Shown here: positions 292 to 63,575 of the stretch, piece by piece
Layout of the letters: every line of letters begins with the position of its first letter
How positions within the stretch are numbered: position 1 is the first letter of the stretch
DNA from: a virus
DNA length: 64,000 nucleotides
Virus record (IMG/VR): IMGVR_UViG_3300024270_000013
Coordinates: 48,575-112,574 of that record
Direction: 5' to 3' (one strand)
Notes under the pieces: generated by a model
Seen by the model: only the letters and a program-made list of their open reading frames with translations
What the model was told of the DNA's origin: nothing
The model's database searches: none
Program-made: the position numbers and the translations under genes

Positions 292-1287
292 ATGAAATTT
301 GGTGTTCGCGAAATTTGTGATGTTGTTTTGAAGGCAAAGGCCGCACAGAAGATTGGTAACAAAATCTTCTATAAAAATGAGCCTGTTATTTACTTCGACA
401 CTTTGAAGACCTCTAGCATGGAAGGCGCAGCTACCACTGTTTATGCACAGGGCGGTCGTGGTAACTCTCGTCTAGTTGCTTGGGAAGGTGAGCGTACTAT
501 CACCTTCACTATGGAAGATGCTTTGATTTCTCCCGCTGGCTTTATGATTCTGTCTGGCGCAGGCTTGATTGAGGCTTCTGAGGCAACTCCTATTAAGGTT
601 CATACTACTGAGCAGACTGACAATGTTGCTGTTGATCCTGATAGCGGTGTTGTTACCATTACTCTGAAAGAAGCTGCTTACAATGTAGCTGACGATGCTG
701 AGGATTATGTTTATGTTATGCTGATGGAGAACGGCGAAGTTGTTTCTGAGCCTTTCATTCCCAGTGCTGTTGAGGGCAAGGTTTTAACTCTGTCTCCCGC
801 TTGGGAAGATGAGGGTCGTACCGGCAATATCAAGCCTCGTGGCAATGATTTGTCTGGTTTCTACAACCATTGTGTTGTAATGGTTGATTACTATGTTGAG
901 CGCAAGGGTAAGGCTCAGGAGATTACTATTACTCCCGATAAGTTCGGTGGTAACTACTACCTAGAGGCTTCTACTCTGTTCCGCACTCAGGATGGTGTCG
1001 ATATGCCTGCAGAGTTTGTAATTCCTAACTGCAAGATTCAGTCTAACTTCACTTTCACTATGGCTTCTTCTGGCGATCCTTCCACCTTCACTTTCACTAT
1101 GGACGCATTCCCTGACTATACTCGTTTCGACAGAACTAAGAAAGTCTTGGCTGCTATCCAGATTATCGAAGGCGGTAATGAAGCTGAAGACATCATGCGT
1201 GTAAGCACTCATTCTTTGGACTATGCTGACGCAAATGGTATGATTACTGGCGCTCGTCCTTTCGCAGGATTTAACGCTGTTGAGTAA
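292..1287 (+). CDS. Putative major tail protein (331 aa). No internal TAG.
   Basis: Strong RBS (TTAAGGAGGATATAAACC-ATG) and a strong terminator immediately downstream. It lies upstream of the assembly genes and the tape-measure gene. Function is inferred from position only. Confidence 0.5.
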   Translation: MKFGVREICDVVLKAKAAQKIGNKIFYKNEPVIYFDTLKTSSMEGAATTVYAQGGRGNSRLVAWEGERTITFTMEDALISPAGFMILSGAGLIEASEATPIKVHTTEQTDNVAVDPDSGVVTITLKEAAYNVADDAEDYVYVMLMENGEVVSEPFIPSAVEGKVLTLSPAWEDEGRTGNIKPRGNDLSGFYNHCVVMVDYYVERKGKAQEITITPDKFGGNYYLEASTLFRTQDGVDMPAEFVIPNCKIQSNFTFTMASSGDPSTFTFTMDAFPDYTRFDRTKKVLAAIQIIEGGNEAEDIMRVSTHSLDYADANGMITGARPFAGFNAVE

Positions 1288-1296
1288 TTGACAATT

Positions 1297-1342
1297 AAAT
1301 AAATTTAAGGGGAGAGGTTTTAAATAACCTCTCCCCTTTTTG
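1297..1342 (+). terminator. Rho-independent terminator
   Basis: GGGGAGAGGTTTTAAATAACCTCTCCCC hairpin followed by a T-run (TTTTTGTCGTTTT). Confidence 0.8.
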
Positions 1343-1367
1343 TCGTTTTGAGAGAAAGGAGAAAAAT

Positions 1368-2561
1368 ATGTTAGAAAGTTGGCAAAGTTTATTAAATACT
1401 CCTATTGATACGTCTGGCTATGATTAGGCCATGCTTCATTATAAAAATTTAAAAGAAAAAATGTTAGATTAGATTACTAATTCAGCAAAAGTTAAATTAA
1501 AAAATGAAGAATATAAAAAATTTATTAATGATATAGATATGTTAATTTTACAAAACGCAAGTGGATGGGGAGAAGGCTATGAAAATGCTCAACGCACATT
1601 AAATAATATTGAAGCAGCAGTAGTAAATTTAATTGAAAGTGGTTCAACTGCAGGAGCTAAAGAATTGTTGGAATCAATTCATAAACAAGTTTATGATAAA
1701 AAAGATAAAATTAAAAATGCCCAACAAACTTTTAAATAGAAATTAAATTTAAATAAAGATTTAATTTTTGCTGAATTAGGTATTAATAATCAATTTATTG
1801 AAAATATGCTTAGTGTTCAAGGAACTTCTGGAGATACTGCTGATATTGTTGCACAAGCATCTTCATATTTTATTCGTTATTTATATAGTAAATTATTTAA
1901 TGAGAAATCATTTGCTGAAGGCTCTCGTTTTAAATATGCGATGTCTTTAGGTGGTTATTATAAAGAGTTGCATGAGTATGAAGCTTTAGAAAAAGTATTA
2001 AATAATTTTTTAAATGTTTATCATACTGGTGGTACAAAAATGAGCGGACGCGATACTGAAATGGATATTTTTATTTCAACATTAGATAACTTAGAAAATG
2101 GATTAACGCAAAATGTAAAAGTTACTTAGATGATATCTTCTCTTTAGGAACCACCAGGGATTGAGGATATATTATTATCTTTGTCTCAATAGATTGATAG
2201 TTTTGGTGAGTAGGTAAAATCTAAAAGTCTAGGGAAAAGTGATACATTTGAAATTGGTAATAGAGCAGATTTGTATTCTGCATTTTTAAGCGAAGGTGGA
2301 AATGAATATAGTTCTTTATAGGCTTTACATTTCTTAGCACGTTTTAAAAATATTTTATTAAGTTTAGGTGTATCTAATGTTTTATTTAGTTCTAATAATA
2401 AAAGACAATGGATGGTTGATTTTATTGAAGATTTTAGAAGATAGTCATATTTACTGTCTTTTGTAAGACCAACAAATAAAGATAAATTAACTTCTAAAGT
2501 CGGATTAGAACAGTTATATACTTCATCCAGAAATTCTATTAGAAGTAGATTTTCAAATTAA
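1368..2561 (+). CDS. Hypothetical late protein of about 397 aa; possible tail assembly or structural protein. Read through about 9 in-frame TAG; ends at TAA 2559-2561.
   Basis: RBS GAGAGAAAGGAGA 5 nt before ATG 1368. ORF-track pieces 1539-1739 and 1806-2129 lie in the same frame and are separated only by TAG. Confidence 0.5.
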
Positions 2562-3281: not shown

Positions 3282-6200
3282 ATGGCAAAGAATTTAAATG
3301 TTAGTTTATCTTTTTCTGCTGATTCATCAAAAGTTAGAGCTGAACTAAATAGTTTAAAAAAGTCTTTGAATGAATTATCTAACAGTATTGCTTTAAAGAT
3401 TCCGCATTTTGAATTTACTAAAGACCTTCAAGAAGCGAGTCGTGCAGCAGCTCAATTAAAAGTTCAATTAGATGCTGCAGTTAATACAAAAACTGGAAAC
3501 TTGGACTTGACTAAGTTCAGCGAGTCAATGAAAAAAAGTGGTATGTCTTTAGAGAAATACCAAAATCAATTATACTAGCTTGGACCTGCCGGTGAAAAAG
3601 CTTTTGCGGACTTAGCAAAGGCTATTACTATGGCGGATGTACCTTTGAGACGCAGTAGTAAATTATTAGATGAATTATGGACTACTATGAAAAATACTGC
3701 TAGATGGCAGCTAACTTCTAGCGCAATGCATGGATTCATGGGTGCAGTATCAAGCGCTTATGGGTATGCAAAAGATTTAAATGCATCTTTAAATGATATC
3801 AGAATTGTTACTGGCGCAAGTACTGAAAAGATGGCTGAGTTTGCGAAAGAGGCAAATAATGCCGCAAAAGCGCTAAGTACAACTACAACAGATTATACTA
3901 AAGCTTCTTTGATTTTCTATCAATAGGGTTTAAGTGATGAATAGGTTAAAGAGCGTACTGATGTTACTATAAAAATGGCTAATGCTGCGGGCGCAAGTGC
4001 CCAAGAAGTTTCTGATTAGTTAACCGCTGTTTGGAATAACTTTTATGATGGTACTAAATCTTTAGAGTATTATGCTGATGTCATGACTGCTCTCGGTGCG
4101 GCAACTGCTTCTAGTACTGATGAGATTGCTGGCGGATTAGAGAAATTTGCAGCCATCGGTAAAACAATTGGTTTAAGTTATGAATATGCTGCATCAGCCT
4201 TGGCAACAATTACTTCAAATACTCGCTAGAGTGAAGAAGTTGTTGGTACTGCCTTAAAGACTATTTTTGCTCGTATTCAAGGTTTGAATTTAGGTGAAAC
4301 TCTTGATGATGGAGTTACTTTAAATAAATATTCTCAAGCACTTGAAAAAGTTGGAATTAGTATATTTGATAGTACTGGAGAATTGAAGAATATGGATAAT
4401 ATTCTTGATGAAATGGCTGCAAAATGGGATGTCTTAAATAACTCTTAGCAAGTAGCATTGGCACAGACTGTTGCTGGTGTTCGTCAATATAACCAATTAA
4501 TTGCCCTAATGAATAACTGGGATAGTGGTGACAGTGATAGTATGGTCGCAAACTTAACTACTGCGACTAATTCTACAGGAACCTTACAGAATCAAGCAGA
4601 TATTTATGCTGAATCTTGGGAGGCTGCAAACAAGAGAGTAAAGGCTTCTACTGAAGCAGTTTATTCTGCTATTTTAAATGATGAGTTCTTTATTGATTTA
4701 ACTAATAGTTTTGCTGATCTTATAGATGGAGTTAAAACTTTTATTGATAGTTTAGGTGGTATTAAAGGTGTTTTATTAGCTATTGGTAGTATTGTAACAA
4801 GTGTTTTTTCTAAGCAAATTAGTTAGAGTATTCAAAATGCTGCTTTTAGTATTAAAGGATTTTTAAATCCAAAGGCTATTTTGGAGGCAGAAGTTAAATA
4901 GAAGGAAAAGGCCAATAAATTATTAGTTAGTGGTTTAAAGGATTAGGGAACTACTTCTAGTGGTTATAGCGCAGAAGCTTATAAAGCTTTAGGTGAAAAT
5001 CAATTAACTTATATTCAAAATATTGAAAGAATGAGTGAAGAAGAGTAGGCTATTAATTAGATTTTAATGGATAGAAATCGAGCCTTAGTAGATAATGCGA
5101 TTAAAGCTGGCGAAGAATTAGAAATAATTGAAGAAAAAATTGCTGCTGAAAGAAATATCCTTGTATTTTAGGCTCAAAAAGCTGGAAAAGGATCTTCAGA
5201 TCAAATCGCTCAAGTTCGAACATTGTCTAAACAGTATGAAGACTTATCAAAAAATGCTTCTAAATTCCAAGCAGTAGCAAATACTGCTTTTAAATCTATC
5301 GGCATGAATGAATAGGCTGAAGATGCTAAAGAATTAAAAAAGGAATTGTCAGAGACTGTTCAAGAAATGTTAAAACTAAAAAATGTTAATAAATTAACAG
5401 ATGCTCAAGGTATTGAAAAATTAAAAACTTCATTAAAAACGTTATTGCCGGAAGTTAATCTTACAACAACAGAAGTTAATGAATTATGGCAAACTATTAA
5501 AAATAGTGAAAATGTTTCTTTTGAATAGATTACTGCTGTATTTAATAGATTATCAACTGCAAGTACAGCTGCTGGAACAAGTATCCAATCAAAATTAAAA
5601 GTTGCGATGGAAGCTTGTGGTATGACAAGTGAAGAAGTAGAAAATGCTATTCGAGAGTATAATGCAGTTTTAGAATAGTTTGAAAATAAAAACGAAGGTG
5701 CTGAAGTTGCATTAAGAAAAGTAATTGTGGCGATGAAAGAGCATAATAAAAGCATGGAAGAGGCAAAATAGAAACCTATTCCAATGGCTGAAGCTTTTTC
5801 TAAAGCTGCCGGGGCAGCTATGGCATTGGGACAAGCCATTACTACTATTACTGGTATTATTGATGTATTTAATAATGAAGAAGCCACTACTAAAGATAAA
5901 ATTATGGCTTTAATATCTGGTATTGGAATGCTAACTGTTACTATAACATCTATTGTACCAGCATTTAGCACTGCAGAAGTTGCTGTGACTGCATTTGGAG
6001 TTACAACTTCTATCGCAATGTGGCAAATTACTTTAATTGCAATTGCAATTGCTGCTTTAATTGCTGGTATTGTTCTTTTAATTAATCATTTAAATGTCTA
6101 TGGACAGACGTTAGATAATGCTAATAAAAAATTAGAATAGGCTTCATAGGATGCTGAGAACGCAGCAAATGCTATTGATGATGCAAAGAATGCATATCAA

Positions 6201-9200
6201 GATTTAACCGATACAATTGAAGATTATCAAGGTGCAAAAGATGCCTTAGATACTTTAATAGAGGGTACAGAAGAGTTTAAAAATTAGTTAAAAGAGGCCA
6301 ATGACTATGCTCGTGAACTAATGGACACATATGGCATAAAAGGTTTATATAATGCTGAAAGCGGATTATGGGAAATCTCTGACGATGCATTAGAGAATGG
6401 AATGGCTGAATATAATAAAAAATTAGAACAAGCTTATATTGATAATGCAGTTGCTCAAAATGCACTCGCCGCGGCAAAAAATCATCAGGCTTTTGCTAAG
6501 TTAGCAGCTGAGGAAGATAAAACTTAGGGTGAGTTTTTATTAGAAAATATGGATAATCAATATTATAATAATAGTATTGGTACATATAGTGATCCTTCAG
6601 CAGCGGCTGGAGCTGCATTAGGTAATTTAATTTATTCTTGGATTGCAAGTTTTGGTGATATTCAATAGCAAGAAGATCAAAATAAATAGCAAATCGGAAT
6701 TTTAGATGAAGTTTTAAAATATTGGGATAGTTATGATGGTAATCTTAATAAGATTGTAAGAGAATTAAGTCTTGAAGGTATTGATTCTAAGGATGATTTA
6801 TTAAACGCCCTAGGAATGACTGAAGCTGCTTTATAGGACTTAATGAACACATTATCTTCAAATACATAGGCAATTCTTGAAAATAATAAGTTTATTATTA
6901 ATAATGCTTGGAAAGATAACGAAGTATATAGTGACTCAGAGCATAAAACAGCATTAAATAATTTAGCTGCTGCAGAAATGATGACTGAATCACAGCGTAT
7001 TCTTGACTAGTATGACAAATATGATAAGAAACAAAGGGAAAATTTATAGAAGTCGTACGCCAAAAAGAAAGATTTAACTTTTGTTTCTGAAAAAGATGGA
7101 ATTGTTGAATTTTTAGATACTGCTGGACAAACTATTAAATTCTCTAATGACAGTATTAAAGCTTTTATGGCTCAAGAGCAAGCTTTAGAAAATGTTGGCA
7201 TATCTTTAGAAACTTTTGCAAAGAACTTAGATAAATTGTCTGAAAAAAGTGAGTCTGGAGATTTGACTGGAGCCTTAGCATATTCTCAAGCTTCTGGAGG
7301 AGATATCTCAGATGTTTCAGTAGGATATGCAAACGGTGATATTCAAACTTTTAATACTGTTCAAGATTTACAAGATTATTTAGATATAGATGATAAAGCT
7401 TTTGAAGCTCTGTGGAAATCAAAGGGTTACATGAGTGCAGAGGCTTATTTAGAATCTTTCAATACACAAGTTTCTAGTTTTAAAGATCAAGTAGATAAGT
7501 TAGATATTGCAAAAGGCTTATCTGTTTTTGATGACTTAAGTTTAGGAATTGCTCAATCAATTGAGGCAGCTGCAGATAAAATGAATTTGGGCTCATTGGG
7601 ATTGCAAGCTGGTGATCAATATATAGAAGGCCTTAATTCTATGTTGTCATAGATTGATGAAGAGGATCAAATGACTGCATTAGAATAGTTATCAAGAATT
7701 GATTGGTCTTCTTGGGATGCTATGGAACAAGCTCAAACTATTTTAGCAAGTTTTGGTAAATAGATTAATACCACTGATTCTTACTGGAAAACTTTTATTG
7801 AAAATATGCGGATAGCTAATGGAGCTTTTCCAGATTTTACTAAATTGCAAACAAATTTACAAGAAATAAGTGCAATTTTAGGTTCTTTAGATTTCGGTGA
7901 TGTTATTAAAGACGAAGATTATGAGAAGTTAGTTGCTTATAATCAAGAGTGGGAAAAATTCTTTATTTTACAAGCTGATGGAACTCGCAAATTTATTGGC
8001 GATTCCGCAGAAATGTTAAATGCTACTAGAGAAAATATTGCGACTCAACGTGAAGATTTAGCAGTAAGAAAAGGATTGGTTGAGCAAGTTATTGATTCTG
8101 AAGCTGATTGGAAAATTTCTGCTACGTCCATTGATAAACAATATGGCGATGGTAAAGACGGTAAGCTAAGTAATCAGAATGGTATTAATCATGGCTACAA
8201 GAGCGGCGAAGATATGATTAATAACATTATGGCAGATCAAACTAAAAATTTAATTGATAATAATGCTGCAATAAAAGAAATTTTAGATAATAATAATTAT
8301 GATGAAACTACTATTAACACTATCCTTCAGGAAGCTCGAGATGGTAATAGAGAGCGTCTTGAGACAATGCTTACATATGTTGATGATTATATGACTCAAA
8401 ATTTAGAGACCTCTGAAGAATAGTTAAATGAAATGATGGCATCTACTGCTACTTCTATTTAGGATTTATAGAATTTATTTAGTCAAGGATTAATTGATGA
8501 AGCTGCTTATGATAAACAATTAACAGTTTTAGCTAATTAGGCTTCTTCTTTAGAAGAGTTAAAACAAATCCAATCTGTTGGTTTAAGTGAAGAGTCAGGA
8601 CTCGATACATATGAATATGGCCAAGCTCTTTTAACCTTAGCTGAGAATTATAGTAATTGCACAGAAGAAGCAGAAGAATATTCTAAAGCCTTACTAACTG
8701 GCAGTGAAACAGAGATTAAAGTTGCTCAAAGCGCATTAGAGGCTGCTGTTGAAGTGGGTGAATTGGCAGAAAAATATGATTTAAATGCAGAAGAATTAGA
8801 AGATTATACAAAAAGATTAAAAGATTTACATAAAGATTCTAATTTAAGTATTAAAGATGCTACAAAATTAGCAACTGCTAATATGCGTTTAGATCGAGGC
8901 GTAAGTAATTTAAATGATAATTTAAATGATTATAAAAAAGCCTTAAATACAACCAATAAAGGTAGCGCTGAGTGGTCTAATACTTTATCAAATTTAAAAA
9001 CAGATTTAGCTGATATAGTAAATGTCGCAGATGGGTCAATGTTAAGTGATCAATTTGCAGAAGATGCTTTAGCTTCTGAAGATTTAAAGTTGGCGCTTGA
9101 TGGCGATGTAGATGCGATTTTAAGATTAAGATTAGCCGCAGCAGATGATATTATTGCTAATTTAGATATTGAAGGCGATGAAAATATTCAAACAGTTCAA

Positions 9201-12200
9201 ACGTAGTGGGAATATTTAAAAGCAAATATGGCCGAAGGAGTATCTGCGGGTAATGTAGATCAATCTGCTTTAATTGATTCATTTAATGAAATGATTAAAG
9301 CTGGTAACATGACTAAAGAACAAATTGAAGCTGCATTAGCTGGATTAAATGTTAGTGCTAATGTTAAAACTAATTATGTTTAGCAAACTACCTCTGTCCC
9401 AACTACTATTACTGATGAATATTTAGAAAAACGGGGAGAACAAACTTATACAGTTGGCTATTAGGAAGATGGTACTCCAATTACAGCTCAATTACCAATG
9501 TATCGTAAATATACTTAGACTTATAGCGGAGAACCAGTAGAAGTTAATGGATGGGTTCCTCAATATACAATTGAAGGTACTGAAGGTGATGGAGATGTTA
9601 CTACAGCTTTTACTTCATTACCTGCTCCTCAAGTAAGTCAATCTTCTACCACAACTGGCAAATAGAGTGGAGGTTCTAAACCAAAGAAAACTTCAGAGGC
9701 TCGCCAAAAAAAATCTGATACGGTTGAACGCTATAAACCAGTAAATGATAAGCTTGATGATATGGCTGATGCTTTGGATGATGCATCTAAAGCGGCCGAT
9801 CGTTTATGGGGTACTGCTCGTATTAATCAAATGGAAAAGATTAATTCGATTTTAGAAGATGAGATTGAATTAATTAAAGAAAAAAGGTCTGAGGCTGAAG
9901 CTTATTTAAAGATTGATAGAGATGATTTAAATGCGGCTGCCGCTGATTTAGGGATTTCTTTCAATTATCAAGATGGCAATATTGCTAATTATGAGTCTCA
10001 AATGACAAAATTGTATAATGAGAGAGAAGCTCTATTAGACAGTTTTGGTGAAGAGATTGATGATACTGAACAAGAAACATTAGATGCTTTTGATAAGAAA
10101 TTAGATAGACTTAAAGAAGCTATTACTCAATACGATGAAACTCGTGAATTAATTGAAGATTTAGAGAATGAAGAATAGGATAAACGCAATGAAATTCAGG
10201 ATAATAATTTTGAAAAATTAAATTATGCTCTAGAAATTGAAATACAGTTTAATGAAGATGATTTGGCTATGATTGAATATCATATGAATAAAATGGAAGA
10301 CGATTTCTATTTAATGGCTGAAGCTTACGCTAAACTTAGTGAATCTAGTTCTATTTATGAAGAAAATCTTCAATTACAAAGACAATACGTTGCTGACTTA
10401 GAAGAAGCTTATAAAAATGGTGAAATCTCTCAAGCAGCTTATATTGAAGGATTGCAAAATGCAAAAGATGCCACTATGGAAAATGCTCAAGCACTAATCG
10501 ACTTAGACCGTCAAATGATAGAGTATTATGGAAATACTTTAGATGCGGCAAATGAAGAGCTAAGTAAATATACTGATAAAATGGAACATCTTACTTCTGT
10601 TTTAGATCATTATTCCAGTATTATGGATTTGTTAGGTAAGAAACAAGATTATGCAGTTATGGGTTCTATTCTAGAGGGATAGGCAAAAACTACTCGTAAT
10701 GAATTAGAAGTAGCACAGGCAACATATGCAATGTACGACGCTGAGGCAAAGCGATGGAAAGAGCAAATGGATAGCGCAATTGAGGGCTCTGATGCTTGGA
10801 AAGTATATAAGGCCAATTGGGAAGCTGCGCAAACTGCAGCTAATGATGCTCAAGATAATATGCTTTCAAAAACTGAAGCATGGATTGAAGCAATGAAAGC
10901 TGTTGTTGAAAATAATATGGCTGAGTTAAATCAAACTTTAGAAGAGACTTTAACAGGAGGCTCTGATTTTGATACGATGCTTGAATCTATGGAGCGTGCA
11001 AGCAGTCTTCAAGAAGAATATTTAACTACTACTAATTAGATTTATGAAACTAATAAATTAATGCGTACCGCACAACAAGAAATTGATAAAACTCAAAATA
11101 CTGTGGCAAAACGCAGATTAACTCAATTTATCCAAGAGACTGAGCAATTATAGAATCAAACTAAATTGAGTAATTATGAATTAGAAATTTAGTAGGCGAA
11201 ATATGATTTGCTTTTGGCAGAAATTGCTTTAGAAGAAGCTCAAAATGCAAAATCTACTGTTCGCCTATAGCGTGATGCTGAAGGTAATTTTGGTTACGTC
11301 TATACCGCAGATCAAGATAAAGTTGCTTAGGCTTAGCAAGAGCTTGAAGATGCTCAAAATTCACTATATAATATTGGACTAGAAGGTGCAAACGATTATA
11401 GCTAGAAATATGCTGAAACAATGCAAGAAATGTATGATACTTTAGCAGAATTGCAATAGGCATATTTAGAGGGTGAAATTGCTAACGAAGAGGAATATAA
11501 TGCTAAAATGGCTGCAGCAAAATAGCATTATTTTGACAAGCTAAAAGATTATTCTAGTCTTTATCAAGTGGCTTTAACCACTGATAGTAGAGTAATAAAT
11601 GATGCATGGAGTTCAGATTTTAATGATATGATTTACAAAACTGGTGAGTTATAGAATGCTGTAAATCAATATACTAAAGATAGTGCAAATACTTTATTGG
11701 GATGGTCAACAACTGTTAAAACTGCGCTAGATCAAACTGGTTTAGATAAAGTTGATAATCAAGTATTATCTATTACTATTGAAAGTGATAAATTAAAAGA
11801 GTCTTTAATTGGAAAAGATGGTAAAGGTGGAGTTGTTAATGCTATTTAGGCTGAAATTACTGAAGTTGGTAATTTAACAGGTGCTTATGCATTAGTTAGA
11901 GAACAAATTCAAGGATTAATTGGAGACCATGAACTATTAATAGGCGAAATTAATTAGACTCAAAAGGTTGAAGAAGAAGCTGCTAAACAAGCAAATGCAA
12001 ATGCTGAAAATGCTACTGACAATACTACTACAAATTAGCAAACACAAAACGATAGTGCTGAAAGTGAAAATAGTGCAGCTAGCTAGTATGATACAAGAAC
12101 TAAGGCAGGAGTCGCTTTAGCAATTATTAGAAATGCAACTGCGGCCGGTTGGGGTAACGGTTCTACGCGAAAAAAGAATCTTGAAGCTAAAGGATTTAGT

Positions 12201-50071: not shown

Positions 50072-50072
50072 A

Positions 50073-50342: not shown

Positions 50343-50343
50343 C

Positions 50344-50808
50344 TTATCCTCCAACAACTTTTACATCATTTGCAATGGGACGTAAATAAAGTACCAACTC
50401 TTTTTCATCTTGTTTAGAAATTAATGTAAATATAATTTCTTCGTTATTATATATAATTTCACGAACATATCCTAATTCTTCTAATGCTTTAATAACACCA
50501 TCTGCGAGAGTATTATAGTCTTTCGGATAATGTATTGCAATAGAAGTAAATATATAATAATATTTTGCATTTAAACCGGTCATAATAGAATCAGTTAAAA
50601 TGTATATGGTACCATTTCGAACTTTAAAATTATTAATATTAATCTTTGCCTATTCTAATTCTTTTATATCATCTAAGAGACCTAAAATTGAACTAGTAGA
50701 ACGATTAATTTCTTTATAGTGTCCAGTATTGCCAATTTCTTCAAGAGTTACTTTCTAATACTTAACACCATCGTAAGTTGTAATTGTTTTTGTTTCAGCC
50801 ACAATCAC
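50344..50808 (-). CDS. Hypothetical protein, about 154 aa, with 2 in-frame TAG.
   Basis: ORF-track piece 50344-50583 extends upstream in frame across two TAGs to a GTG at 50808 that overlaps the TGA of the upstream gene (GTGA overlap). Confidence 0.45.
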
Positions 50809-51299: not shown

Positions 51300-51338
51300 A
51301 TTATAACCCTCCTTTATCTCATTTATATAAATATTATA

Positions 51339-51821: not shown

Positions 51822-51870
51822 ACGAACTTACTCCTTTCTAATAGCGTAGCTAATTCGTAGTTAGCTACAA

Positions 51871-54075: not shown

Positions 54076-54162
54076 ACTAATTACCTCCATTATAAAATAC
54101 TATATCTTGTGGAGAGCGTAAAAACTCTCTACAAAATATAGCGTTTTATCTTGATCTATTAA

Positions 54163-54754
54163 TCAATGTCGTCCTTGCGCGAGCATGTCCTCGATCTGGC
54201 CTGCAATCTGCTCGGCGTTCGCATAGAAATCGTCAAAAGTCTCGTTGACAACTTCGGTGTAGTCAAAATCAATATCAGCAAAATCTTCTTCATCAGCATT
54301 GAAGCGACGAACAATCTCTTTAACGTCGGGATTTTCCTCTCGACTAAGCTGACGATATAAGCGCTGTTTATCAGAAACAGTTACCCAATAAACAGTGACT
54401 TCACAATCCGGCCGGTCAAGCAACTGCCGCACACCCGCAGGATTGAAAACACCGATATTGATAATGCCATCGCTGCGTACAGACTCATAACTAGTACCAT
54501 ACCACCAATTGTTGAAATTAGTAAATTCCAACATTTCATCATTCATAATTTTCATTGCAAAATCATCGGGATGATAGTAATAGTAATTGATGCCGTGAGC
54601 TTCGCCCTCTCGCATTGGTCTACTGGTACAGCTTACGATCTCGTGGACCTCAGAAATAATTTTCTTTTCAGCGAGTAATTTTAATACCTATTTCATCAAT
54701 GAGTCTTTACCAGCGCCGCCTTTACCCATAAAAAGAACTATTTTATACATTTTC
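54163..54754 (-). CDS. Guanylate-kinase-like nucleoside monophosphate kinase, about 196 aa, with one in-frame TAG.
   Basis: P-loop GKGGAGKDS, then TAG, then the TSRPMREGEAHGINYYY guanylate-kinase motif. RBS GAGGAGG before ATG 54754. Confidence 0.65.
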
Positions 54755-54964
54755 ATTGTCCTCCTCAAACTCATATTGAATTTTTCCGGGGACTTCATGC
54801 GCCCAGAAGGTAGCACGACCATCGCAGTCGGGGTTACTGCAACGGAATGGGTATTGCTCGGGGTAGGTAGAATATACCATCCCCGTGCTCACCATTTTAC
54901 TACCACACTTATCGCAGAACGCTTCTAATACATATGCTTTTTTTACATATCTCTTAGTCAACAT
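54743..54964 (-). CDS. Small zinc-ribbon protein (73 aa)
   Basis: CDKC…CSNPDC C4 arrangement. RBS AAGGAGG. Overlaps the 3' end of dnaE. Confidence 0.45.
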   Translation of the reverse strand: MLTKRYVKKAYVLEAFCDKCGSKMVSTGMVYSTYPEQYPFRCSNPDCDGRATFWAHEVPGKIQYEFEEDNENV

Positions 54965-57900
54965 CTTCTGCAGTGCCTCCTTGATAACGACTATCTTGTA
55001 ATACTAAGTCACCATTATCCAAGATCTCATTGATACGATATAGCTGATGTCCGCCAGTAGAAGCATACTTCTTAGAAACAAAATCATCACCGCTGCGGAT
55101 TCCCGTTACGACGATCATATTACCGCGGTTGAACCAACTCTTCTCAACGACGTGCTTGACGCCATCTGCGCCACGCTCGGAGATCTGCTTATCGAACATC
55201 GCAAAATATTCTTTTCTGAATTTGACATTTACAACACCTGTTGTTGTCAAAATGGTAACTGTACTCTTAGTCTTATTCTTTGCAATACAAGTTCCGCAAA
55301 TACGATTCAAATGAAAGATATGAATGTCTTTGCCTCCCTTATGGAATGTCTTTTCAATGATCGGATCTTCTGGCAATAGGTTGAAATCAACAAAGCCATA
55401 TTTATCATTATTGACATTTTGCAATTCGTGGTCATGATAATAGAAGCACAAGACTTCCATCTCCCACGCAGAGATAGTACCCTTCGCATATTTATTCCAA
55501 TCTTCCATGAAGATTTCTGTATTCAGCGCATTTAAGATTGTATCTTTTTCTGCGGCGATCCACTTTCTGAATACATCCATATGCTTCTGGTATACATTAT
55601 CCCAAGCCTTAGTTTTTATATACCAAGACACATTATCTGTTGTCATAAGATTTTCGCAATCAATCTCCTGCAAGAAAGCGATTGCTCTCGTATCAAGACT
55701 ATACATATCCTTATAAGCATACTTATCAGCCTTAGTAATTGCCTTCAAATATCTATTGAACTCATATACTCGACGAGCGAGAATTTGCTCTTCAGTTTTT
55801 TCAGGCAATAATCCGTGCTTGATAAGTCCACCCATATTTTGTAAGGTGATACGACTCTTCTTATCACAAGTCTCCCAGATATACCAAGCCATTACAAATT
55901 GACGCTCTTCCATATCGTCAAATGCGCCACCCTTGATAAGGGCAATCATAGCTTGCTTACTGGGTCTAACTCTATTCAAGAAATCTTTTGGAGAGCTATA
56001 AGGTCTGTTTTCAATAATGCTGGCAATCAAATCATCGCCCACATTCAACATACCTTTCAATCCAAAAAGAATTCGATTATTTTCTACATCTGGAGCAAAT
56101 CCAAAATCTGATTTATTAATGTTTGCCAAGCTAACTTTAATTCCTGCACCAGTGATATCACCGATTGCTTTGGCAATTTTTCCATAATCAGTTGAACCTC
56201 CTGCTTCTTCATCAGTTGCACCACTGTTTACAATCAAACAAGCAGTATTCCAATAAATTGGATTGAAATTCATAACAAAGTAAATTGATTGAATACCAAC
56301 AAAAGAATAAGGCAGAGAGTGGTTCAGACTAAATGCATATCCTAACTGGGGTGCAATTGCATTTTCCCAGAAATAATTTGCCGACTGAACCCGGTCAAAT
56401 TTACTATAGACCTGTTCGCGCAATTCCGGAATCTTACTCATTTGCTTCTTACCAACAATCTTTCTCGCATTATTGGCTTCACCTAATGTGAAATTTGCAA
56501 CATCCATAAGTAATTCCATCATCTGCTCCTGGATAGCACAACAACCCCAGTATTGGTCACAATGCTTATGCATTAGCGCAATCATATTTTGATCCAGACC
56601 AGCTTCGTGCATTTCTCGATCAAATTCTTCCAATCCTCGCTTTTGGATACGAACATATCTATCTTGCTGAGATTCCTTGCCTTTTTCAGACATAAGTCTC
56701 ATCATTGCGTTCGCCGCAGTCATCTCCATAGGATTCTTTGGTTTCAACTTTTTTGCAATAGCTAATCCAACGCCAGTGCTGAACTGGAACACATCCAGAA
56801 CATCACCGGCCGCAAGATGCTCCCAAATGCGGGGATCAGTTGTATCAATCACTTCTGGATGAATATACTTATTATATAGATTACGCAAACCAATATCTTC
56901 AATTACTTTATCTGCGGTAAGTAATTCAAAACATTTGATAATCTTATCTGAAATTTCAGTTACCAAGAAGTCATACTTGGTATCACCTGCGGCCTCTGCT
57001 TTATGCAGGTCATAGCAGGTAATCAAATCTCCACTTGGAGTTCTCATAAATGCCGCAGTTTCAAACGGGTCACTACCATATAAGATAACACCCGAAGCGT
57101 GAGAAGAACGCTTATTTACTAGTCCTTCAATTGACTGAATAATAGCCAATAGACCAGGATAGTTATTTACTTCTCGAATGAATGGAGCAACGGGTTTTCT
57201 ATCTTTCTCCTCATTGCCGTTGATAACATCACTAATCGGCCATAAGAATCCACGCTCTTGGGGGATTAGAGAAGACATGTACTGGGCTTGATCGACATCG
57301 ATTCCATCTGGGAAATCCTCGCTTCGATAACCGCGGCAAGCCGTGAGTACAGCTGATTTCGTTCCTTCTGTTCCGAAGGTTGCGACCTGGATAAGTCCCA
57401 ACTCTCCACGCTCTTTACGAATTGCTTCAAAAATTGCGGGTCGTTTTGATGGAGCGAGGTCAATGTCAATATCGGGCAACTCGGCTCTCTCCTTATTAAG
57501 GAAACGCCAGTAAGGTAGATTCCATCTGATGGGGTCGAGCTGCGTGATGCCCAAGAGGTAGTTAGACAAAAATCCTGTGGCCGAGCCTCGACCTGGGCCA
57601 ACAATTGAGCCACACTCCCAGAATAGGTCGATGTAATGCTTGAAGGTGTTGAAATAGGCGAATAGACAGTCATCTAATTTCTCTCCAATATCTAAAATAA
57701 CATCAGCTTCGGTTTCTAATCTCTGCCAATATTCAACTTTATCTTGTAAGCCTTTTTCATTTAGGCTCTTCGCGCACTCATATAGCCAATATCTCTCTTG
57801 GACGTTACCATCAACTAACAAATGCGCTAAACATGGATAGAACTTATTTAGGTTCCAATCGATTTCATATGGAATGTACTCTTGAATTTCTCGTTCAGAA

Positions 57901-58847
57901 TGAGTTGGCAGAGGAATCTTAGGAATCATCTGTTTACGCTCTAAAGAGTATGAAGTATATTGTTCACCCAATTTACGAGAGTTTTCTAAGATTTCAGTGA
58001 CAATATAATCATTTCCAAAGCAATGATGCAATAGTTTATAAACTTCATCATATGACATCAAATGAGCAAACTCATAGAAACTATCAACCTCACGCTCGCC
58101 GCCCTTAGAATTTAGATAAGACTTATGGACGTATCTATCTTCCTTGGTGAGATAGTGAGAGTCAGTACCAACAATCAAAGGAATATCATATGCTTTTGCA
58201 ATACGATATAACTTGCGGTTGGTGATACATTGATCCTCAGCGGTTGAAGGCGCACATTCAATATAGAAATCATTACCGAACACATCAAGACAATACTTGA
58301 TGAAATCGCAAATTTGATTATAAAACACTCCTGCGGAAATCTTATCATTGACATTTTCAGCGCAGGCCATGTTGTATGCGGCGGTGGATAACTCGCCACC
58401 CATACAGGCGGTTGAAGCAATTACATGCCCCTTATACTTCGCCATAATGGTTGCCAATTCGTCTTTGGTAATGGGCACGCGCTCCATACCTCGATCGACA
58501 TAGGAATGATACCAAGCAGTTGAGCTCAATTCACGCAGAGCCTTGTGTCCGATTTCATCCTTGGCAGTTAGAATAAAGTGATAATATTTGATACCACTCT
58601 CTCGTTTATCTACTAAATAAACCTCATTGCCTAAAACAATTACAAAATCGGGATACTTCTCCTTTATCTTCTAAGCATACTGATTGACTTCCATATGTCC
58701 GGATAGACATTCGTGGTCTGTAATCGCAATGCCGGAAAGACCCAATTCAATTGCTTTGTCAATGAGGTCCTTAGGTCTATTGATACAATCGAGTAAGCGG
58801 ATATTCGAATACATTGTATGGTTGTGAATATTGAAATATGTTCCCAT
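54954..58847 (-). CDS. dnaE: DNA polymerase III alpha subunit (DnaE-type), about 1297 aa, with one in-frame TAG in the PHP domain.
   Basis: ORF 54954-58529 carries the Pol III alpha core (…GPGRGSATGFLSNYLLGITQLDPIRWNLPYWRFLNKERAELPDIDIDL…). The N-terminal PHP domain (MGTYFNIHNHTMYSNIRLLD…ITDHECLSG…) lies upstream in the same frame, separated only by TAG 58670-58672. ATG 58847 is preceded by GAAAGGGATAATCGA. Confidence 0.85.
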
Positions 58848-58882
58848 TCGATTATCCCTTTCAATTTGATTTCTTATACTAT

Positions 58883-58911
58883 ATTATACCAATTTTTTTC
58901 TCTATTGTCAA
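58883..58911 (-). promoter_or_regulatory. Perfect sigma-70 consensus promoter on the minus strand: TTGACA, 17 bp spacer, TATAAT. It lies upstream of dnaE.
   Basis: Reverse complement: TTGACA at 58911-58906, a 17-nt spacer, and TATAAT at 58888-58883. Overlaps the 3' end of the helicase gene. Confidence 0.65.
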
Positions 58912-60083
58912 CTATCTCGCACGATAACGAGCTTTTCTTTGGCGCGCGTAGCAGCTGTATATAGCCACTCTGCATGGTGTCCACCACGCAAAAATTCTTC
59001 AAAAACAAGAACTTTATCATATTCACTACCCTGCGCCTTATGGGTAGTAATACAATAACCATAGTCGAATTCACGGGGGCGCCAAATCTTAGGGAAGCGC
59101 TTCCAGTTCTGCGCGGTTACGGTCGGCTCACCAGTAGTGAGTAATCTGTAATCCATATTTACACCACGGAAAATCAAATCCTGTGGAGAGTTTTCAACAT
59201 CATCGTCTGAATAATCATCAGACCAAAAATCGCAAACCATCATCGGCCGCAAATAAGGATTGTTATTCAACAAATCAATCTTAGTAAGTGTGCCAATAGT
59301 GCCATTCACCATTACATCGCCCGCTTCACTCGGATGATCCCAGTCATTCCGCAAACAAATAACCTTATCTCCTACTATTGGAGTCGGATCGTCAATGTCA
59401 TGTAAATACTTACGCATAAGATGATTTACCGTACGGCGTGTCTCATTCTTTGCTACAAGGATCTGGTCGGCCCAAGTATACATACCAGACACAACATCTT
59501 TCTTATCAATGATTTGCACTTCGTTTCCTCGGAAGAGTTCGAGAGGTTTGCCGTCTCGAATATCCATAGTCAAACGAATGATTTCACTCTCCTGGGCTTG
59601 GCGCATAATCTCATCCAAGAAAATGTGCGGATGGTCGAGCACTCCATTAGACTCACCAATAGGAGGAAGCTGGCCGGGGTCGCCAAGAGCAATAACATGA
59701 ATACGATGTGAAGTCAACAAATCCCAAATCTCTTTTGGAAGCATTGAAATTTCATCGACAACAATCAACTTATATGGATAGTCCAGAGGTCTACGAGGTT
59801 TGTGATAGAATGTTCCATCATTGCGAGGATAGGACTGATATAACAGTCTGTGTGCGGTCATGGCATTCTCGCATCCTTTTTCACGCAAAACCTTTGCGGC
59901 CTTGCCTGTGAATGCGATATAACAAACCTCTGCGGGATATAGACCCAGCGCTGCAACGATAAACTTCACAAGTGTACTCTTACCAGTACCAGCGTAACCG
60001 GCGATACAGGTCCAGGGTTCATTGTTCTTATAGCGGGCGACCGCAATCTTTAATCCCTCTTCCTATTTAGCAGTAAGTACCAT
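58908..60083 (-). CDS. SF1 RecD/Dda-like DNA helicase, about 391 aa, with one in-frame TAG near the N-terminus.
   Basis: Walker A AGYAGTGKST just upstream of ORF 58908-59969, reached across TAG 60064-60066. Also VVDEISM, GDPGQLPPI and TTHKAQGSEYDKVLV motifs. Start ATG 60083 lies 6 nt after GGAGG. Confidence 0.75.
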
Positions 60084-60354
60084 TTTCATCCTCCTTTGGA
60101 TGGGCGTGAACCAGCTGTTCTAATGTCATATAAAAATGCTGCTTACGACCATTCATACGCCGACGCGCGTCAACGGGGTCAATATGATCGGCTCTAGACA
60201 TATACGCAGCCAATTCATCACAGACTTCGGCATATCTAAAATAGATACTATCAAATCCAAAATCTAAACGGTCTTTTACCAATTCATCGAAATCTTCTCT
60301 TGGTAATCTTACAATATCCAATTTTTCTTTCAGACTTTTTGCGTAATCCGTCAT
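60067..60354 (-). CDS. Hypothetical protein (95 aa)
   Basis: RBS AAAGGTGAG. No TAG. Confidence 0.45.
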   Translation of the reverse strand: MTDYAKSLKEKLDIVRLPREDFDELVKDRLDFGFDSIYFRYAEVCDELAAYMSRADHIDPVDARRRMNGRKQHFYMTLEQLVHAHPKEDENGTYC

Positions 60355-60402
60355 TTTATTCTCACCTTTTTATTTTTATTATACCAAAATATTTTATATA
60401 AA

Positions 60403-60845
60403 TCAATTCAAAAACATATTGGTCTTGTCTAAGTTTATAATATCATCAGACCAACCAATATCTCCCAAAATAAGAAAATCCTCACTGGGAACAATTCGAT
60501 TTGAAATTTCTAAACCGCCTTTTTGATTTGAGTTTTCGGTCTTGGCGTCCAATGCCGATCGGAGCTCGTCTATTTGCATTTCTACCAAGTCTGTCCGAGC
60601 GCTATTAGCGGCATCCGCACAATCCACATCATACCTCAAATCACTCATTGAATCCTTTATGGCAGTGATTTCAGTAGTCGCCCAATCCATCTGTTGCATC
60701 AACTCTGATAACTTACGCAGAGCTTCTGTCATTTGCTATGTGGTACAGCCGACTTGGGCCACCACTGAACTCAAACTTATTGTAGCGTCTGATACGCTTG
60801 GTAAGTTTAGCATAATATCATTTTGTATCTATTTCAAAACTGCCA
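60403..60845 (-). CDS. Hypothetical coiled-coil protein, about 147 aa, with 2 in-frame TAG.
   Basis: ATG 60845 lies 8 nt after AGGAG. ORF-track piece 60403-60732 extends upstream in frame across TAGs. Confidence 0.4.
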
Positions 60846-60859
60846 TCTTTCCATCTCCT

Positions 60860-60905
60860 ATAAACAAAAATAAGGGTTATATAGGGGCGAACCCCTATAT
60901 AACCT
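60860..60905 (-). terminator. Rho-independent terminator on the minus strand
   Basis: GGTTATATAGGGGTTCGCCCCTATATAACC, a 13-bp stem, followed by CTTATTTTTGTTT on the minus strand. Confidence 0.7.
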
Positions 60906-60911
60906 ATTTAC

Positions 60912-61802
60912 TTACCCTACGAAATACTCGTAAGCTCGTCTTGCGTATCCTCTACGAGGCGCTCTATGTCCTTCACCACAACGCTCGAAATAACAAGCGA
61001 AGGCGTAGGCACATTCTTCCGGAGTGTCGGCTTCCATGATTTGCTCGAGTTGCCAATTTGTAACTTGTTTGGTAACTCCATCAGTGCCGTGCAACTCATC
61101 GTGCATAAAATTGAGCTGATCTTCAATACTTGGATTTTCTCCGTAAATTGAAAATAGTTGACGCTTGCGGCCGCCTAGCCACTGAATCATACCGAAACCA
61201 CTTGAGCTATGTACGTCCCAATCGAGATCGGAAGTCCAGCAACCGCCGCACTCAGCCATCATATTACCCATAATACCGGCGCACACAGTATCACTATAAC
61301 CCAGCTCATTCTTCATATAGAGCCAGACTTGAGTAGCAACTGGATACTCGGCCGCACGCTTCTCCCATTTGAGTTTCTCTTCCCAAATTGAGAATTGCTC
61401 TTGGTAATACTCAACTTCAATTGTTGCATTTTCAATATCGGTTTTAGCTAATACTACTGCGGGATGGTCGTCCGCATAACCGAGAGTTAGGAAACCTTGA
61501 TAGATGGTTTCAGTAAGCTCCTGGCGAGCAATAGCTTCTTCCAATAGAGAAGTAGCTTCATCATATGTAGTAGGTTCAACACGCTTGAACTCCACGGTAT
61601 CTAATACAATAACTACCTCTTCTGGTTCAGTAGACTCAGTATCTACTGGAAAGGTGGTAGTCTCAGAAGGGATGTAATCTTCCGAAAAAGTAGCAACTGG
61701 ATTGGTGTCTGCGACCACAGTACCTGCTGCATATGCAATAACACTTAGAGTGCTAATAAACATGGCTATAATCAACAATACACCGATAATTTTCTGTTTC
61801 AT
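60912..61802 (-). CDS. Secreted lysozyme-like/peptidoglycan hydrolase-like protein (296 aa). Candidate Sec-dependent endolysin or virion-associated lysin.
   Basis: N-terminal signal peptide (MKQKIIGVLLIIAMFISTLSVIAYAAG) and a Thr/Glu/Pro-rich linker. The C-terminal domain carries a DTVCAGIMGNMMAECGG motif resembling phage tail-lysozyme-like domains. The family assignment is from memory. Confidence 0.5.
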   Translation of the reverse strand: MKQKIIGVLLIIAMFISTLSVIAYAAGTVVADTNPVATFSEDYIPSETTTFPVDTESTEPEEVVIVLDTVEFKRVEPTTYDEATSLLEEAIARQELTETIYQGFLTLGYADDHPAVVLAKTDIENATIEVEYYQEQFSIWEEKLKWEKRAAEYPVATQVWLYMKNELGYSDTVCAGIMGNMMAECGGCWTSDLDWDVHSSSGFGMIQWLGGRKRQLFSIYGENPSIEDQLNFMHDELHGTDGVTKQVTNWQLEQIMEADTPEECAYAFACYFERCGEGHRAPRRGYARRAYEYFVG

Positions 61803-61835
61803 AATTTCCTCCTAATATTACTATCAGGCCGTCAA

Positions 61836-63575
61836 TTAGAAATAGTATTTCTGTTCTCCTACAATTTCGTAATCTTCAATAATAATTTGTGGACTTACAA
61901 TACCATTCCATATGTTGCGTTCACACTTGCCCACAACATTGATGGTTATACAACCAGTTTCAGAGTGTAATTTTTCATACTCCTCTTGTGACGACTTGAA
62001 TTTGATTAAACTCGTACCATTTGGTAAGGTTATCTTTAGAGTAGGACTCTTGTCTGGTGACATAAGAACAATATTATCTTTATGTAGATTGATATGTTCG
62101 ATGGCAACCAGAGGTTCATCTACTCCTTGGCCCCATAAAGATTTGAGTTCAGCAATTTCCACAATGTCTTTTCCTCTGAAATCATCACCGTGGAAAATGA
62201 AATCAACCTTATAACAAGGGGTAAAGTCAAAATCTGCCAAAGCGTGATTGGAGTAATTTACAAATTGAGTAAAGTTTGCATCAGTGATACCAACACCCAA
62301 TGCGTTGGCGTGACCTTCTGCATACATTACCAATTCACTATCTTTCAAAAACTCACGGAGGTTATCAAATTTCGATTTATCGTATCCTCTTCCTGAACCC
62401 TCCCAGCCATCTTCTGTCTTATTAAGTAGAAGTACTGGGCGTTGATATTTCGCCATTAGCTGGTTTGCAATCAAACCAGTAAGGTTTTTATCGGCCGCAA
62501 AAGTATCTAATTTGATAGCCAAAATCTTATTCTCTAACAGATTTTTCTCTTTGATTATGCGTTCAATTGTCTCCAAGGCTGCGTCTCTTGCTTTTGTTTG
62601 CCTATTTTTGATGTTAGTGCAATTACGACAAGCCTGTTCTACTCTCGTCTCCTGCTGACCCTTACATCCTCTTTTGGTTGATGGGACTAGTTCATATCCC
62701 CGATAGTCAAGCATAGACTCGAATAGCATGAGCTTTTCTTCCTGCGTTCCCATTCTTATCGTGGCATTTACATAGGGAGCAATATAAAAAGCTACTCCAA
62801 TAGGACTGATACCGTCTTTCAACGAATATGCTTGTTTGTCTACCATTCCCTTGAAGTATGGATTGCGAATATTCTCGAGTCCTCGCGTGATAAGGTGTCT
62901 CGTTTCAAAATCGCGTAGATCCATCATGTCGGCCACCATTCCGAGTGCGACCAAATCTAAAAACTGATCTGCATAATCAACATTCATAAGCTCGTCGATA
63001 TAGGAACAGAATTTATATACCATTCCGACACCAGACAAAGACTTAGTGGGATAATCACACAGCTGATTGTTGATAATACAGGCGTGTTCTGAGATACTAT
63101 CTGCTTCGTGGTGGTCAATTACCAGCACATCCACGCCTTTTTCAGCCAATGTCTTATGCTCTTCATAATCATTGGAACTTGAGTCGGGCGCAATCACTAA
63201 CTTGACATCTGCGGGAACAGTATCAAGAATAATGCCGTGCTGTTTCCCCGTATGGATACGATAATATACATTGTTCTACACAAAACCGGGGAATAGACAA
63301 TTCAGATAGTTGATAAGGGCGGCCGCACTTGTATAACCATCACAGTCGCTATCAATCTGAATTAGAACTTTGTCATTTTGTGCGATATGTTTGATGAGAA
63401 GTTTTACACCCTCTTGGATATTCATAAGAATTTTTGGGTCTAAAATATCTGCATCAGTAGTATGTAGATAGTGTTCTACATTCGCCGGTACAATGCCCCG
63501 GTTGGCAAGTACCTATTCGACCGCTGTTAGCTATTTCTCCAGCGGGATATTAGGTACAATAAGTTGATACTCCAT
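61836..63575 (-). CDS. recJ: RecJ-like DHH-family single-strand DNA exonuclease, about 579 aa, with 3 in-frame TAG in the N-terminal part.
   Basis: DHH motif VIDHHE. Upstream, in frame across TAGs, the DHH motif I …IQIDSDCDGYTSAAAL…. RBS AGGAGG before ATG 63575. Confidence 0.7.

Follow-up and report, generated by a model that had tools for sequence, protein, structure and literature searches.

Stop-codon recoding in phages is usually said to have two states, early genes being kept in the standard code and late genes written in an alternative one. The locus described here, a 64-kb window (the whole stretch of DNA that was analysed: 64,000 nucleotides, positions 48,575 to 112,574 of the IMG/VR virus record IMGVR_UViG_3300024270_000013), raises the question of why a phage that reads TAG as glutamine should carry TAG codons near the 5′ ends of its replication genes, when a number of its other genes are free of them. 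An earlier note on this DNA saw in the arrangement a built-in timing or quality checkpoint, or else the sign of a suppressor that is available very early. The window accounts for about one third of the genome of an SPbeta-like siphophage (~181 kb) found in herbivore-gut metagenomes; exact protein matches locate it on an ENA contig of 181,006 bp (ERZ27248446:k141_1906683, roughly positions 62,493-126,492, reversed) and on several JGI contigs. Its TAG usage, read together with that of its relatives, shows a continuum along the ordinary codon-bias axis and not a two-state division into early and late genes.

TAG as a glutamine codon and its density across the window

The window has a GC content of 35.5% and its gene map consists of two convergent blocks, one of plus-strand virion genes and one of minus-strand early/middle genes. 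The temporal class of the blocks was assigned from gene content, strand and promoter-like motifs. The layout is as follows:

2-48229, plus strand: late (virion) gene block, 27 genes, 21 with in-frame TAG; structural Pfam and PHROG matches
48244-48281, both strands: bidirectional terminator-like hairpin with a 16-bp stem and T-runs on both strands, separating the convergent blocks
48291-63973, minus strand: early/middle array, the distal end of a long leftward array, 18 genes, 9 with TAG

The late block encodes the tube protein, a tape measure of 3122 amino acids (aa), and baseplate and fibre proteins. Pfam matches in the minus-strand block identify holin-like, RuvC, dUTPase, NrdG, NrdD, guanylate-kinase-like kinase, DnaE-type polymerase, SF1 helicase, phage lysozyme and RecJ products. 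A second long perfect hairpin with T-runs on both strands, also resembling a bidirectional terminator, lies at 60874-60905 in the gap between the lysozyme-like gene and the next gene.

In the standard code, open reading frames (ORFs) of 300 aa or more take up 25% of the window, a figure that becomes 79% when TAG is opened and 28% when TGA is opened instead. The 45 genes end in TAA (36) or TGA (9) and none ends in TAG. When genes of the window genome were aligned with orthologues from hundreds of related loci, glutamine (Gln) was the majority residue at 23 of the 35 TAG columns; its share in these columns was 56.5% against a background of 3.2%, a 17.8-fold enrichment. The phage is shown, at the level of its sequence, to use genetic code 15 (TAG = Gln) throughout, with TAG never serving as a stop. 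In crAss-like phages the incorporation of Gln at TAG has reportedly been addressed by proteomics.

The two blocks differ in their density of TAG. The late block contains 171 TAGs in 15,514 codons (11.0 per 1000; 29% of Gln-type codons) and the minus-strand block 14 in 5,074 (2.8 per 1000; 7.7% of Gln-type codons), giving a Fisher odds ratio of 4.8 (p = 3.6e-10). The late genes are moreover heterogeneous among themselves (chi2 p = 1e-6), and their range is seen in the following genes:

292-1287, plus strand: tail tube protein (YomU_Tube); 0 TAG, 0 CAA, 7 CAG; TAG share 0.7% in the orthologues of 47 relatives
3282-12650, plus strand: tape-measure protein, 3122 aa; 59 TAG, 124 CAA, 12 CAG; GC content at third codon positions (GC3) 0.17
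12770-18700, plus strand: 1976-aa virion gene; 26 TAG, which is 53% of its own Gln-type codons
28270-30636, plus strand: 788-aa fibre; 0 TAG among 22 Gln codons (P = 6e-4)
39693-40310, 43595-44302 and 44756-45394, plus strand: three further late genes; 0 TAG each

The tape measure is the clearest TAG-rich, CAG-depleted gene. The opposite pattern extends beyond the window into the 10-kb flanks, which were read from two loci of the same genome (L001 and L008) and bring the sequence covered to ~84 kb. Just upstream, in L008, the head genes for the major capsid protein YonB (0 TAG, 0 CAA, 12 CAG) and for a scaffold-like head protein of 275 aa (0 TAG, 0 CAA, 15 CAG) have the same composition as the tube gene. 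The virion genes that lack TAG are those whose products are made in abundance (capsid, scaffold, tube), and almost all of their Gln codons are CAG.

The fibre region has a composition of its own. The 788-aa fibre and its two TAG-poor neighbours (which include 25368-28249) have a GC content of 0.36-0.39, compared with 0.31-0.33 in the adjacent tail genes, and their use of CAA and CAG is more balanced than that of the surrounding tail genes. This region, 28270-30636 and also 25368-28249, could be a recently exchanged host-range cassette.

Across 39 genes the TAG share rises with CAA/(CAA+CAG) (Spearman rho 0.69) and falls with GC3, with the AAG fraction and with the GAG fraction (rho about -0.63). 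As it follows the use of CAA and declines with these three measures, TAG behaves as an AT-rich ‘unpreferred’ synonym of CAG. The same grading holds clade-wide, where the TAG share is 0.7% in the tube, 1.5% in the major capsid protein, 0.4% in DnaE and 0.6% in NrdD, against 24% in the portal and 37% in YomV. In the closest IMG/VR relative, a contig of 171.6 kb, the 59.8 kb of the leftward array upstream of RecJ contain 0, 0.7, 1.0, 3.8, 1.2 and 1.7 TAG per 1000 codons in successive 10-kb bins, the value of 3.8 being due to nine TAGs in a single GIY-YIG gene. The earliest genes of this relative have no TAG in 2,848 codons, and the first 10 kb of the array use CAG 97 times as against 9 times for CAA.

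The orthologue of the GIY-YIG gene in the present genome (L001 2-730, ~9 kb past the right end of the window) is homing-endonuclease-like and has 10 TAGs in 243 codons. It is by far the gene densest in TAG in an otherwise TAG-poor early/middle array.

TAG codons in the replication genes

The genes of the minus-strand block that bear on the question are, from right to left, the following:

61836-63575, minus strand: RecJ-like exonuclease (YorK homologue); TAG at codons 15, 21 and 100 (63531-63533, 63513-63515, 63276-63278)
60912-61802, minus strand: lysozyme-like gene; 0 TAG
60403-60846, minus strand: 147-aa gene of unknown function; TAG at codons 6 and 37; start less certain, two orthologues found
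58908-60089, minus strand: SF1 (RecD/PIF1-like) helicase; one TAG (60063-60065)
54954-58847, minus strand: DnaE-type polymerase (YorL-like); one TAG at codon 59 (58671-58673), in the PHP domain after the HNHT motif
54163-54750, minus strand: guanylate-kinase-like nucleotide kinase; one TAG at codon 21 (54688-54690), just past the P-loop
51871-54090, minus strand: NrdD anaerobic ribonucleotide reductase; TAG at codons 137 and 689 (53680-53682, 52024-52026)
51339-51821, minus strand: NrdG; 0 TAG
49285-49824, minus strand: dUTPase; 0 TAG
48798-49334, minus strand: RuvC; 0 TAG

The counts given in the earlier note for DnaE (1), the helicase (1), RecJ (3), NrdD (2) and the kinase (1) were reproduced. 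Its list of TAG-free genes also stands for the tube, the fibre, the three further late genes, dUTPase, RuvC, NrdG and the lysozyme-like gene, but not for the holin-like gene; the only holin-like candidate found (48291-48731) has one TAG at codon 131.

These TAGs would have no bearing on translation if the true starts lay downstream, so that the 5′ TAGs fell in untranslated leaders and the early genes were compatible with the standard code. The standard-code gene calls made by JGI for the same genome (L002, L003, L007, L010) have just this form: RecJ is given 453 aa instead of 579, DnaB and the helicase are likewise started downstream and shortened, and DnaE, NrdD and the tape measure are broken into fragments, whereas in the ENA calls TAG is treated as a sense codon. 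Two small genes, 60403-60846 and 50344-50808, also have only putative starts. For the larger genes the alignments contradict such a reading. RecJ aligns from Met1 with 48 relatives, TAG-free ones included, and with SPbeta YorK, and its third TAG is downstream of DHH motif I (DSDCDG), so that readthrough is needed at all three sites. The downstream start that the earlier note had considered for RecJ, at the Met of MIAPDSS, reads VIAPDSS in the sequence and therefore offers no Met at that point. In the helicase the TAG is codon 7 from an ATG that has the Shine-Dalgarno sequence AAGGAGG ahead of it at proper spacing. This codon lies inside the conserved N-terminal LTxKQEEGL, upstream of Walker A, its column is Gln in 26 of 26 orthologues, and no in-frame start occurs between the TAG and Walker A. 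DnaB, encoded in the same genome just beyond the window, has a TAG at codon 13 where 66 of 67 relatives have Gln. The DnaE and kinase TAGs follow the PHP His motif and the P-loop, respectively, and both NrdD TAGs are internal, the second being in the C-terminal Cys cluster upstream of the glycyl-radical motif RVTGY.

In relatives, the conservation of RecJ, the helicase, DnaE and DnaB extends to the first residue, and the upstream ATGs of the TAG-bearing replication genes follow strong Shine-Dalgarno sites. Downstream starts were accordingly rejected for RecJ, the helicase, DnaB, DnaE, the kinase and NrdD, and an annotation artefact is a most improbable explanation of their TAGs; the N-terminal extensions are real coding sequence. 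Because the TAGs lie in conserved coding sequence downstream of Shine-Dalgarno-supported starts, RecJ, the helicase, DnaE, DnaB, NrdD and the kinase do, on this evidence, appear to require suppression in order to be made, which bears out the dependence proposed in the earlier note. Gene callers that apply one code or the other block by block will mis-start or split RecJ, DnaB, the helicase and DnaE, as the JGI calls did here.

The TAGs of the minus-strand genes are also displaced towards the start codon. Their mean relative position (14 TAGs) is 0.263, compared with 0.495 when TAG labels were permuted among the Gln-type codons of each gene (P = 0.0002), while the 169 late-gene TAGs are uniform along their genes with a mean relative position of 0.488. 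A codon-index analysis was made on the minus-strand genes of the window together with 13 further early/middle genes of L001, which between them have 17 TAGs. As a percentage of the Gln-type codons in each interval of codon index, TAG amounts to:

Codons 1-10: 22%
Codons 11-25: 33%
Codons 26-50: 14%
Codons 51-100: 7%
Codons 101-200: 2.8%
Codons beyond 200: 0.9%

Eight of the 17 early/middle TAGs fall within the first 25 codons. A general AT-rich 5′ codon ramp was tried as the cause and rejected: GC3 is flat along the genes and the difference in position between CAA and CAG is not significant (p = 0.11), so the bias is not that of an ordinary ramp. The relatives were compared by independent sites, with columns that have a TAG in the window genome excluded. 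In their early orthologues, 0.32-0.37 distinct TAG columns are counted per Gln column within the first 50 codons, a ratio that falls to 0.09 past codon 200, while their head genes are nearly flat. The placement of TAG near the 5′ ends of replication genes, to which the earlier note had drawn attention, is thus statistically real and not peculiar to one genome.

Suppressor tRNA genes and early blocks of the relatives

The suppressor of this phage is inferred from other members of the clade, tRNA(CUA) genes being present in L490/491, L497, L500, L530, L532, L534 and L535. In L490/491, L497 and L500, which are the more distant members, the tRNA(CUA) lies 7-10 kb upstream of a vault-protein-like gene in the TAG-free early block. 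The close relatives L530, L532, L534 and L535 have an array of 11-14 tRNA genes that includes one or two tRNA(CUA) and is located upstream of the early genes in the same orientation. The gene order after the array is abhydrolase, DUF2828, metallophosphatase, Thg1-like, sigma-70-like factor, RNase T and RNA ligase, then the NAD salvage genes, and then topoisomerase, ligase, DnaB and RecJ. In five loci the suppressor is preceded, at a distance of 41-226 nt, by a perfect TTGACA-17-TGnTATAAT promoter (12/12); a sixth locus has an 11/12 match. Because these are perfect host sigma-A-type promoters, the suppressor in this clade appears set up for immediate transcription by the host RNA polymerase, and by extension the same would be true of the present genome.

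The window itself has one such promoter, ahead of the polymerase gene:

58883-58911, minus strand: perfect sigma-A-type promoter match with extended -10 (TTGACA-17-TGnTATAAT, 12/12), inside the 3′ end of the helicase gene and 35 nt before the DnaE ATG

The suggestion that the suppressor is available very early therefore fits the relatives, in which tRNA(CUA) stands behind perfect promoters at the head of a TAG-free early array, but nothing suggests the virion-delivered or host tRNA that the earlier note had offered as examples.

In the close relatives some of the tRNA(CUA) genes reach 91-97 nt and have a long variable arm of class-II-like form (L530 6288-6384, L532 621-717 and L534 6805-6895, the last of these loci having a further tRNA(CUA) gene at 6896-6970). 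The long form adjoins or replaces a normal 75-nt tRNA(CUA), and its acceptor stem UGGGG...CCCCA resembles that of co-resident tRNA-Gln genes. A long variable arm is unusual in a Gln-type tRNA, which these candidate suppressors would be.

The early regions of the relatives have further distinctive contents. The nearly TAG-free early block (L478 1-11,140; L313; L154; L516/L530) encodes a sigma-70-family factor, a Thg1-like enzyme, RNase T, RNA ligase, a DUF2828/TROVE-like protein, an 840-aa major-vault-protein-like protein, a GyrB/GyrA-like topoisomerase and an NAD-dependent ligase, together with a full NAD-salvage set (NAMPT-like, PRPP transferase, NadE, Sir2 and a macro domain). In the nearest relative about 15 small TAG-free genes are found upstream of terminase (L396 14,400-20,800; L474 10,000-15,900). 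Each is preceded by one promoter-like repeat, which translates as ...LTN...CAII... and contains a TTGACA-type -35 and TGnTATAAT, and together they look like an immediate-early gene set. Between early gene clusters, L474 15,935-18,400 has ~2.4 kb without a clean ORF in any frame even with TAG open; this region may serve as an origin or as an attachment or terminal region, or may encode a non-coding RNA.

Explanations for the graded use of TAG and comparison with known systems

The frequency of TAG is probably set by a balance of mutation and selection and not by a binary early/late switch of code. AT-biased mutation would turn CAG into TAG through a single C>T change, and selection would remove TAG in proportion to the cost of failed suppression, in which host release factor 1 (RF1) terminates in place of decoding by the suppressor tRNA. 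This cost would be highest in three situations. It would be high for the most abundantly made proteins (capsid, scaffold, tube), which would stay TAG-free with CAG only, and for genes translated before or while the suppressor accumulates, so that the earliest genes would be TAG-free and the replication genes TAG-poor. It would also be high at codons distant from the start, since the longer the aborted peptide, the greater the waste, and the few early/middle TAGs would consequently gather in the first ~50 codons. The replication block would then be a ‘middle’ class, dependent on suppression and still selected against TAG except near the 5′ end. Suppression itself would come, as in the relatives, from one or two Gln-like tRNA(CUA) transcribed from host sigma-A promoters at the head of the same-strand early array. 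The RF1-competition cost, the temporal class of the blocks and the suppressor of this genome are all three inferred.

A comparable principle is found in ordinary translation. Nonsense (processivity) errors in bacteria and yeast have an expected termination cost that rises with codon index, so that selection against them is predicted to be weaker near the 5′ end. The predicted pattern resembles that of TAG in the early/middle genes, and the two may be connected, although processivity errors are a drop-off at ordinary sense codons and the present case would be RF1 termination at a reassigned stop. The decay of TAG from 5′ to 3′ in early/middle genes may, tentatively and at somewhat less than even chances, be a previously undescribed footprint of incomplete suppression early in infection. 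Nothing relevant on a positional bias of recoded stops in phages was found in a literature search that was not exhaustive.

A number of observations weigh against this interpretation. No tRNA was detected by ARAGORN in the ~84 kb read of this genome (the window with L001 and L008), nor by Rfam at gathering thresholds, which matched no RNA family, tRNA included, in the window or its flanks; a suppressor tRNA with its promoter, which the earlier note had proposed to locate, was found behind consensus promoters in relatives and not here. The closest IMG/VR relative likewise has no tRNA in ~100 kb (~58%) of its 171.6 kb, namely 5,956-45,301 and 106,287-166,091, which take in all but the outermost ~11 kb of the contig and the ~61 kb that are homologous to the present DNA. 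The gradient of the window itself rests on 14-17 TAGs. That of the relatives is weaker, with a mean position of 0.433 against a null of 0.52 which assumes Gln columns to be exchangeable, and their head genes show a slight 5′ excess too (0.47 against 0.50). Less constrained N-termini could contribute to a 5′ excess. The temporal classes on which the argument depends are putative, being drawn from gene content, strand and promoter-like motifs. Finally, the GIY-YIG gene, with its 10 TAGs in 243 codons in the early array, fits a model of mutation and selection only if it is weakly selected or expressed late.

The same 5′ bias could be read the other way, as a programmed gate in which 5′-proximal TAGs were selected to hold back RecJ, the helicase, DnaB and DnaE until the suppressor tRNA is present; this is the timing or quality checkpoint of the earlier note. 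The strength of the bias (P = 0.0002; 8 of 17 TAGs in the first 25 codons), its recurrence in relatives, the position of the TAGs in essential genes upstream of catalytic motifs, and the retention of at least one TAG by 39 of 48 RecJ orthologues would all suit a gate. A regulatory stop codon would be expected to keep its position, but the TAG sites of the window are rarely TAG in the relatives, those in RecJ, the helicase and DnaB being mostly CAA or CAG. TAG-free orthologues make up 21 of 26 for DnaE, 11 of 26 for the helicase and 41 of 74 for DnaB, and a TAG in the first 50 codons is present in just one of 26 helicase orthologues (25 being without it) and in none of the 26 of DnaE. Since the individual sites in the helicase, RecJ and DnaE are lineage-specific and not conserved, the checkpoint is unsupported. 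Furthermore, the TAG share near the 5′ end (~30%) equals but does not exceed the 29% of the late genes, which points to relaxed purifying selection near the start and not to positive selection. Both the suppressor (in relatives) and DnaE (here) have consensus sigma-A promoters, so their transcription is probably simultaneous and would leave little delay to exploit. A programmed gate is therefore unlikely.

Nor do the two remaining explanations account well for the pattern. If TAG-free and TAG-poor genes were recent imports from standard-code phages or hosts, TAG use would reflect the time since import. The clade is visibly mosaic, its gene order around the early block differs, and the TAG-free fibre and its TAG-poor neighbours stand apart in GC content from the adjacent tail genes as described above; fibre genes are commonly exchanged among phages. 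Yet the avoidance of TAG in the tube, the major capsid protein, the scaffold-like protein and DnaE holds over 26-54 orthologues of 37-100% identity and is therefore maintained, not transient, and import explains neither the gradient within genes nor the exclusive use of CAG in the major virion proteins, which makes a mosaic origin distinctly unlikely. The other possibility, that TAG is readable from infection onwards through a host-supplied or virion-delivered suppressor, would make early TAGs free of cost and would agree with the lack of a tRNA gene in the 84 kb of this genome. It is very unlikely in view of the earliest genes of the nearest relative, without a TAG in 2,848 codons, and of the ~15 small promoter-proximal genes that are also TAG-free; it is argued that the host does not read TAG because the earliest genes avoid it completely. 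The positional gradient of the early/middle genes implies in addition that TAG is costly there, and strong promoters precede the tRNA(CUA) genes that clade members themselves encode. A balance of mutation and selection thus continues to be the preferred explanation.

The earlier note set the TAGs of the replication genes against published models of recoded phages. The claimed conflict is not supported: the late genes have a 4-fold higher density of TAG than the replication block, and comparable recoding has already been described. Borges et al. (10.1101/2021.08.26.457843) report that recoding is biased to late genes, with replication machinery ‘variably encoded in alternative code’ and, in Lak phages, for the most part recoded, and Babkin et al. 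(2023; PMC10607447) describe TAG in DNA-processing genes of phAss-1. The core finding, a recoded phage whose replication genes are partly TAG-bearing, is therefore already known. The crAss-like, Lak and ‘gemstone’ clades of Borges et al. are similar to the present lineage in having in-frame TAG as Gln, recoding concentrated in structural genes, and suppressor tRNA(CUA) genes in a region compatible with the standard code (here, that of the relatives). They differ in that the present lineage is SPbeta-like, with homologues of YomU, YonB, YonD, YorF, YorH, YorK and YorL, and is placed in no named clade. A term search of the text of Borges et al. found no within-gene positional gradient, no link to codon bias and no avoidance of TAG in the major capsid or tube proteins. 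The phage phAss-1 (proposed Phassvirus; GenBank OQ749652) is also large (~136 kb), with predicted Clostridia hosts, and in its standard-code annotation the RecJ homologue is broken up into four ORFs. Its RecJ has 34.5% identity to that of the present phage, and no per-gene or positional analysis of TAG is reported for it.

The closest annotated genomes are Bacillus phage SPbeta (NC_001884) and its relatives, with which virion and replication families are held in common (YomU tube, YonB, YonD, YomV/W, YorF, YorH, YorK and YorL-type DnaE). Precomputed Pfam matches place the YomU, YomV, YomW, YonB, YonD, YorF and YorH families in the flanks, and the best annotated match of RecJ is YorK of SPbeta and relatives, at 38% identity over 99% of the protein. 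A megablast search of the replication block against GenBank phages gave no nucleotide match. Since there is no such match and protein identity is below 40%, the phage would be a distant relative of SPbeta at best, and a much larger SPbeta-like phage. SPbeta uses the standard code, has a genome of ~134 kb and infects Bacillus, whereas members of the present clade are 160-206 kb, come from herbivore guts and in many cases are TAG-recoded; their contigs are abundant in IMG/VR and in assemblies from ruminant and other herbivore guts.

Clade contigs of 140-175 kb (L544-L582) have been binned in metagenome-assembled genomes assigned to Lachnospiraceae, Clostridium, Bacilli, Mollicutes, Bacteroidales, Treponema and Gastranaerophilaceae. 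As the taxonomy of these bins is inconsistent, their placement is almost certainly a binning artefact and gives no reliable host.

The within-gene gradient, the tie to codon bias and the avoidance of TAG in the major virion proteins were not met with in the literature searched, which was not exhaustive, and these are the parts worth following up. In place of two states the window presents a continuum, in which TAG use follows the codon-bias axis and, in early/middle genes, the distance from the start codon. If the decay of TAG along early/middle genes is indeed a footprint of incomplete suppression, the timing and completeness of the code switch in a recoded phage could be read from sequence alone, as could the set of genes translated ahead of its completion. 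Should the gradient generalise, it would provide a cheap ranking of genes, from sequence only, by the suppression available when they are translated, and the model of the code switch as a lysis timer would become testable without culturing these phages.

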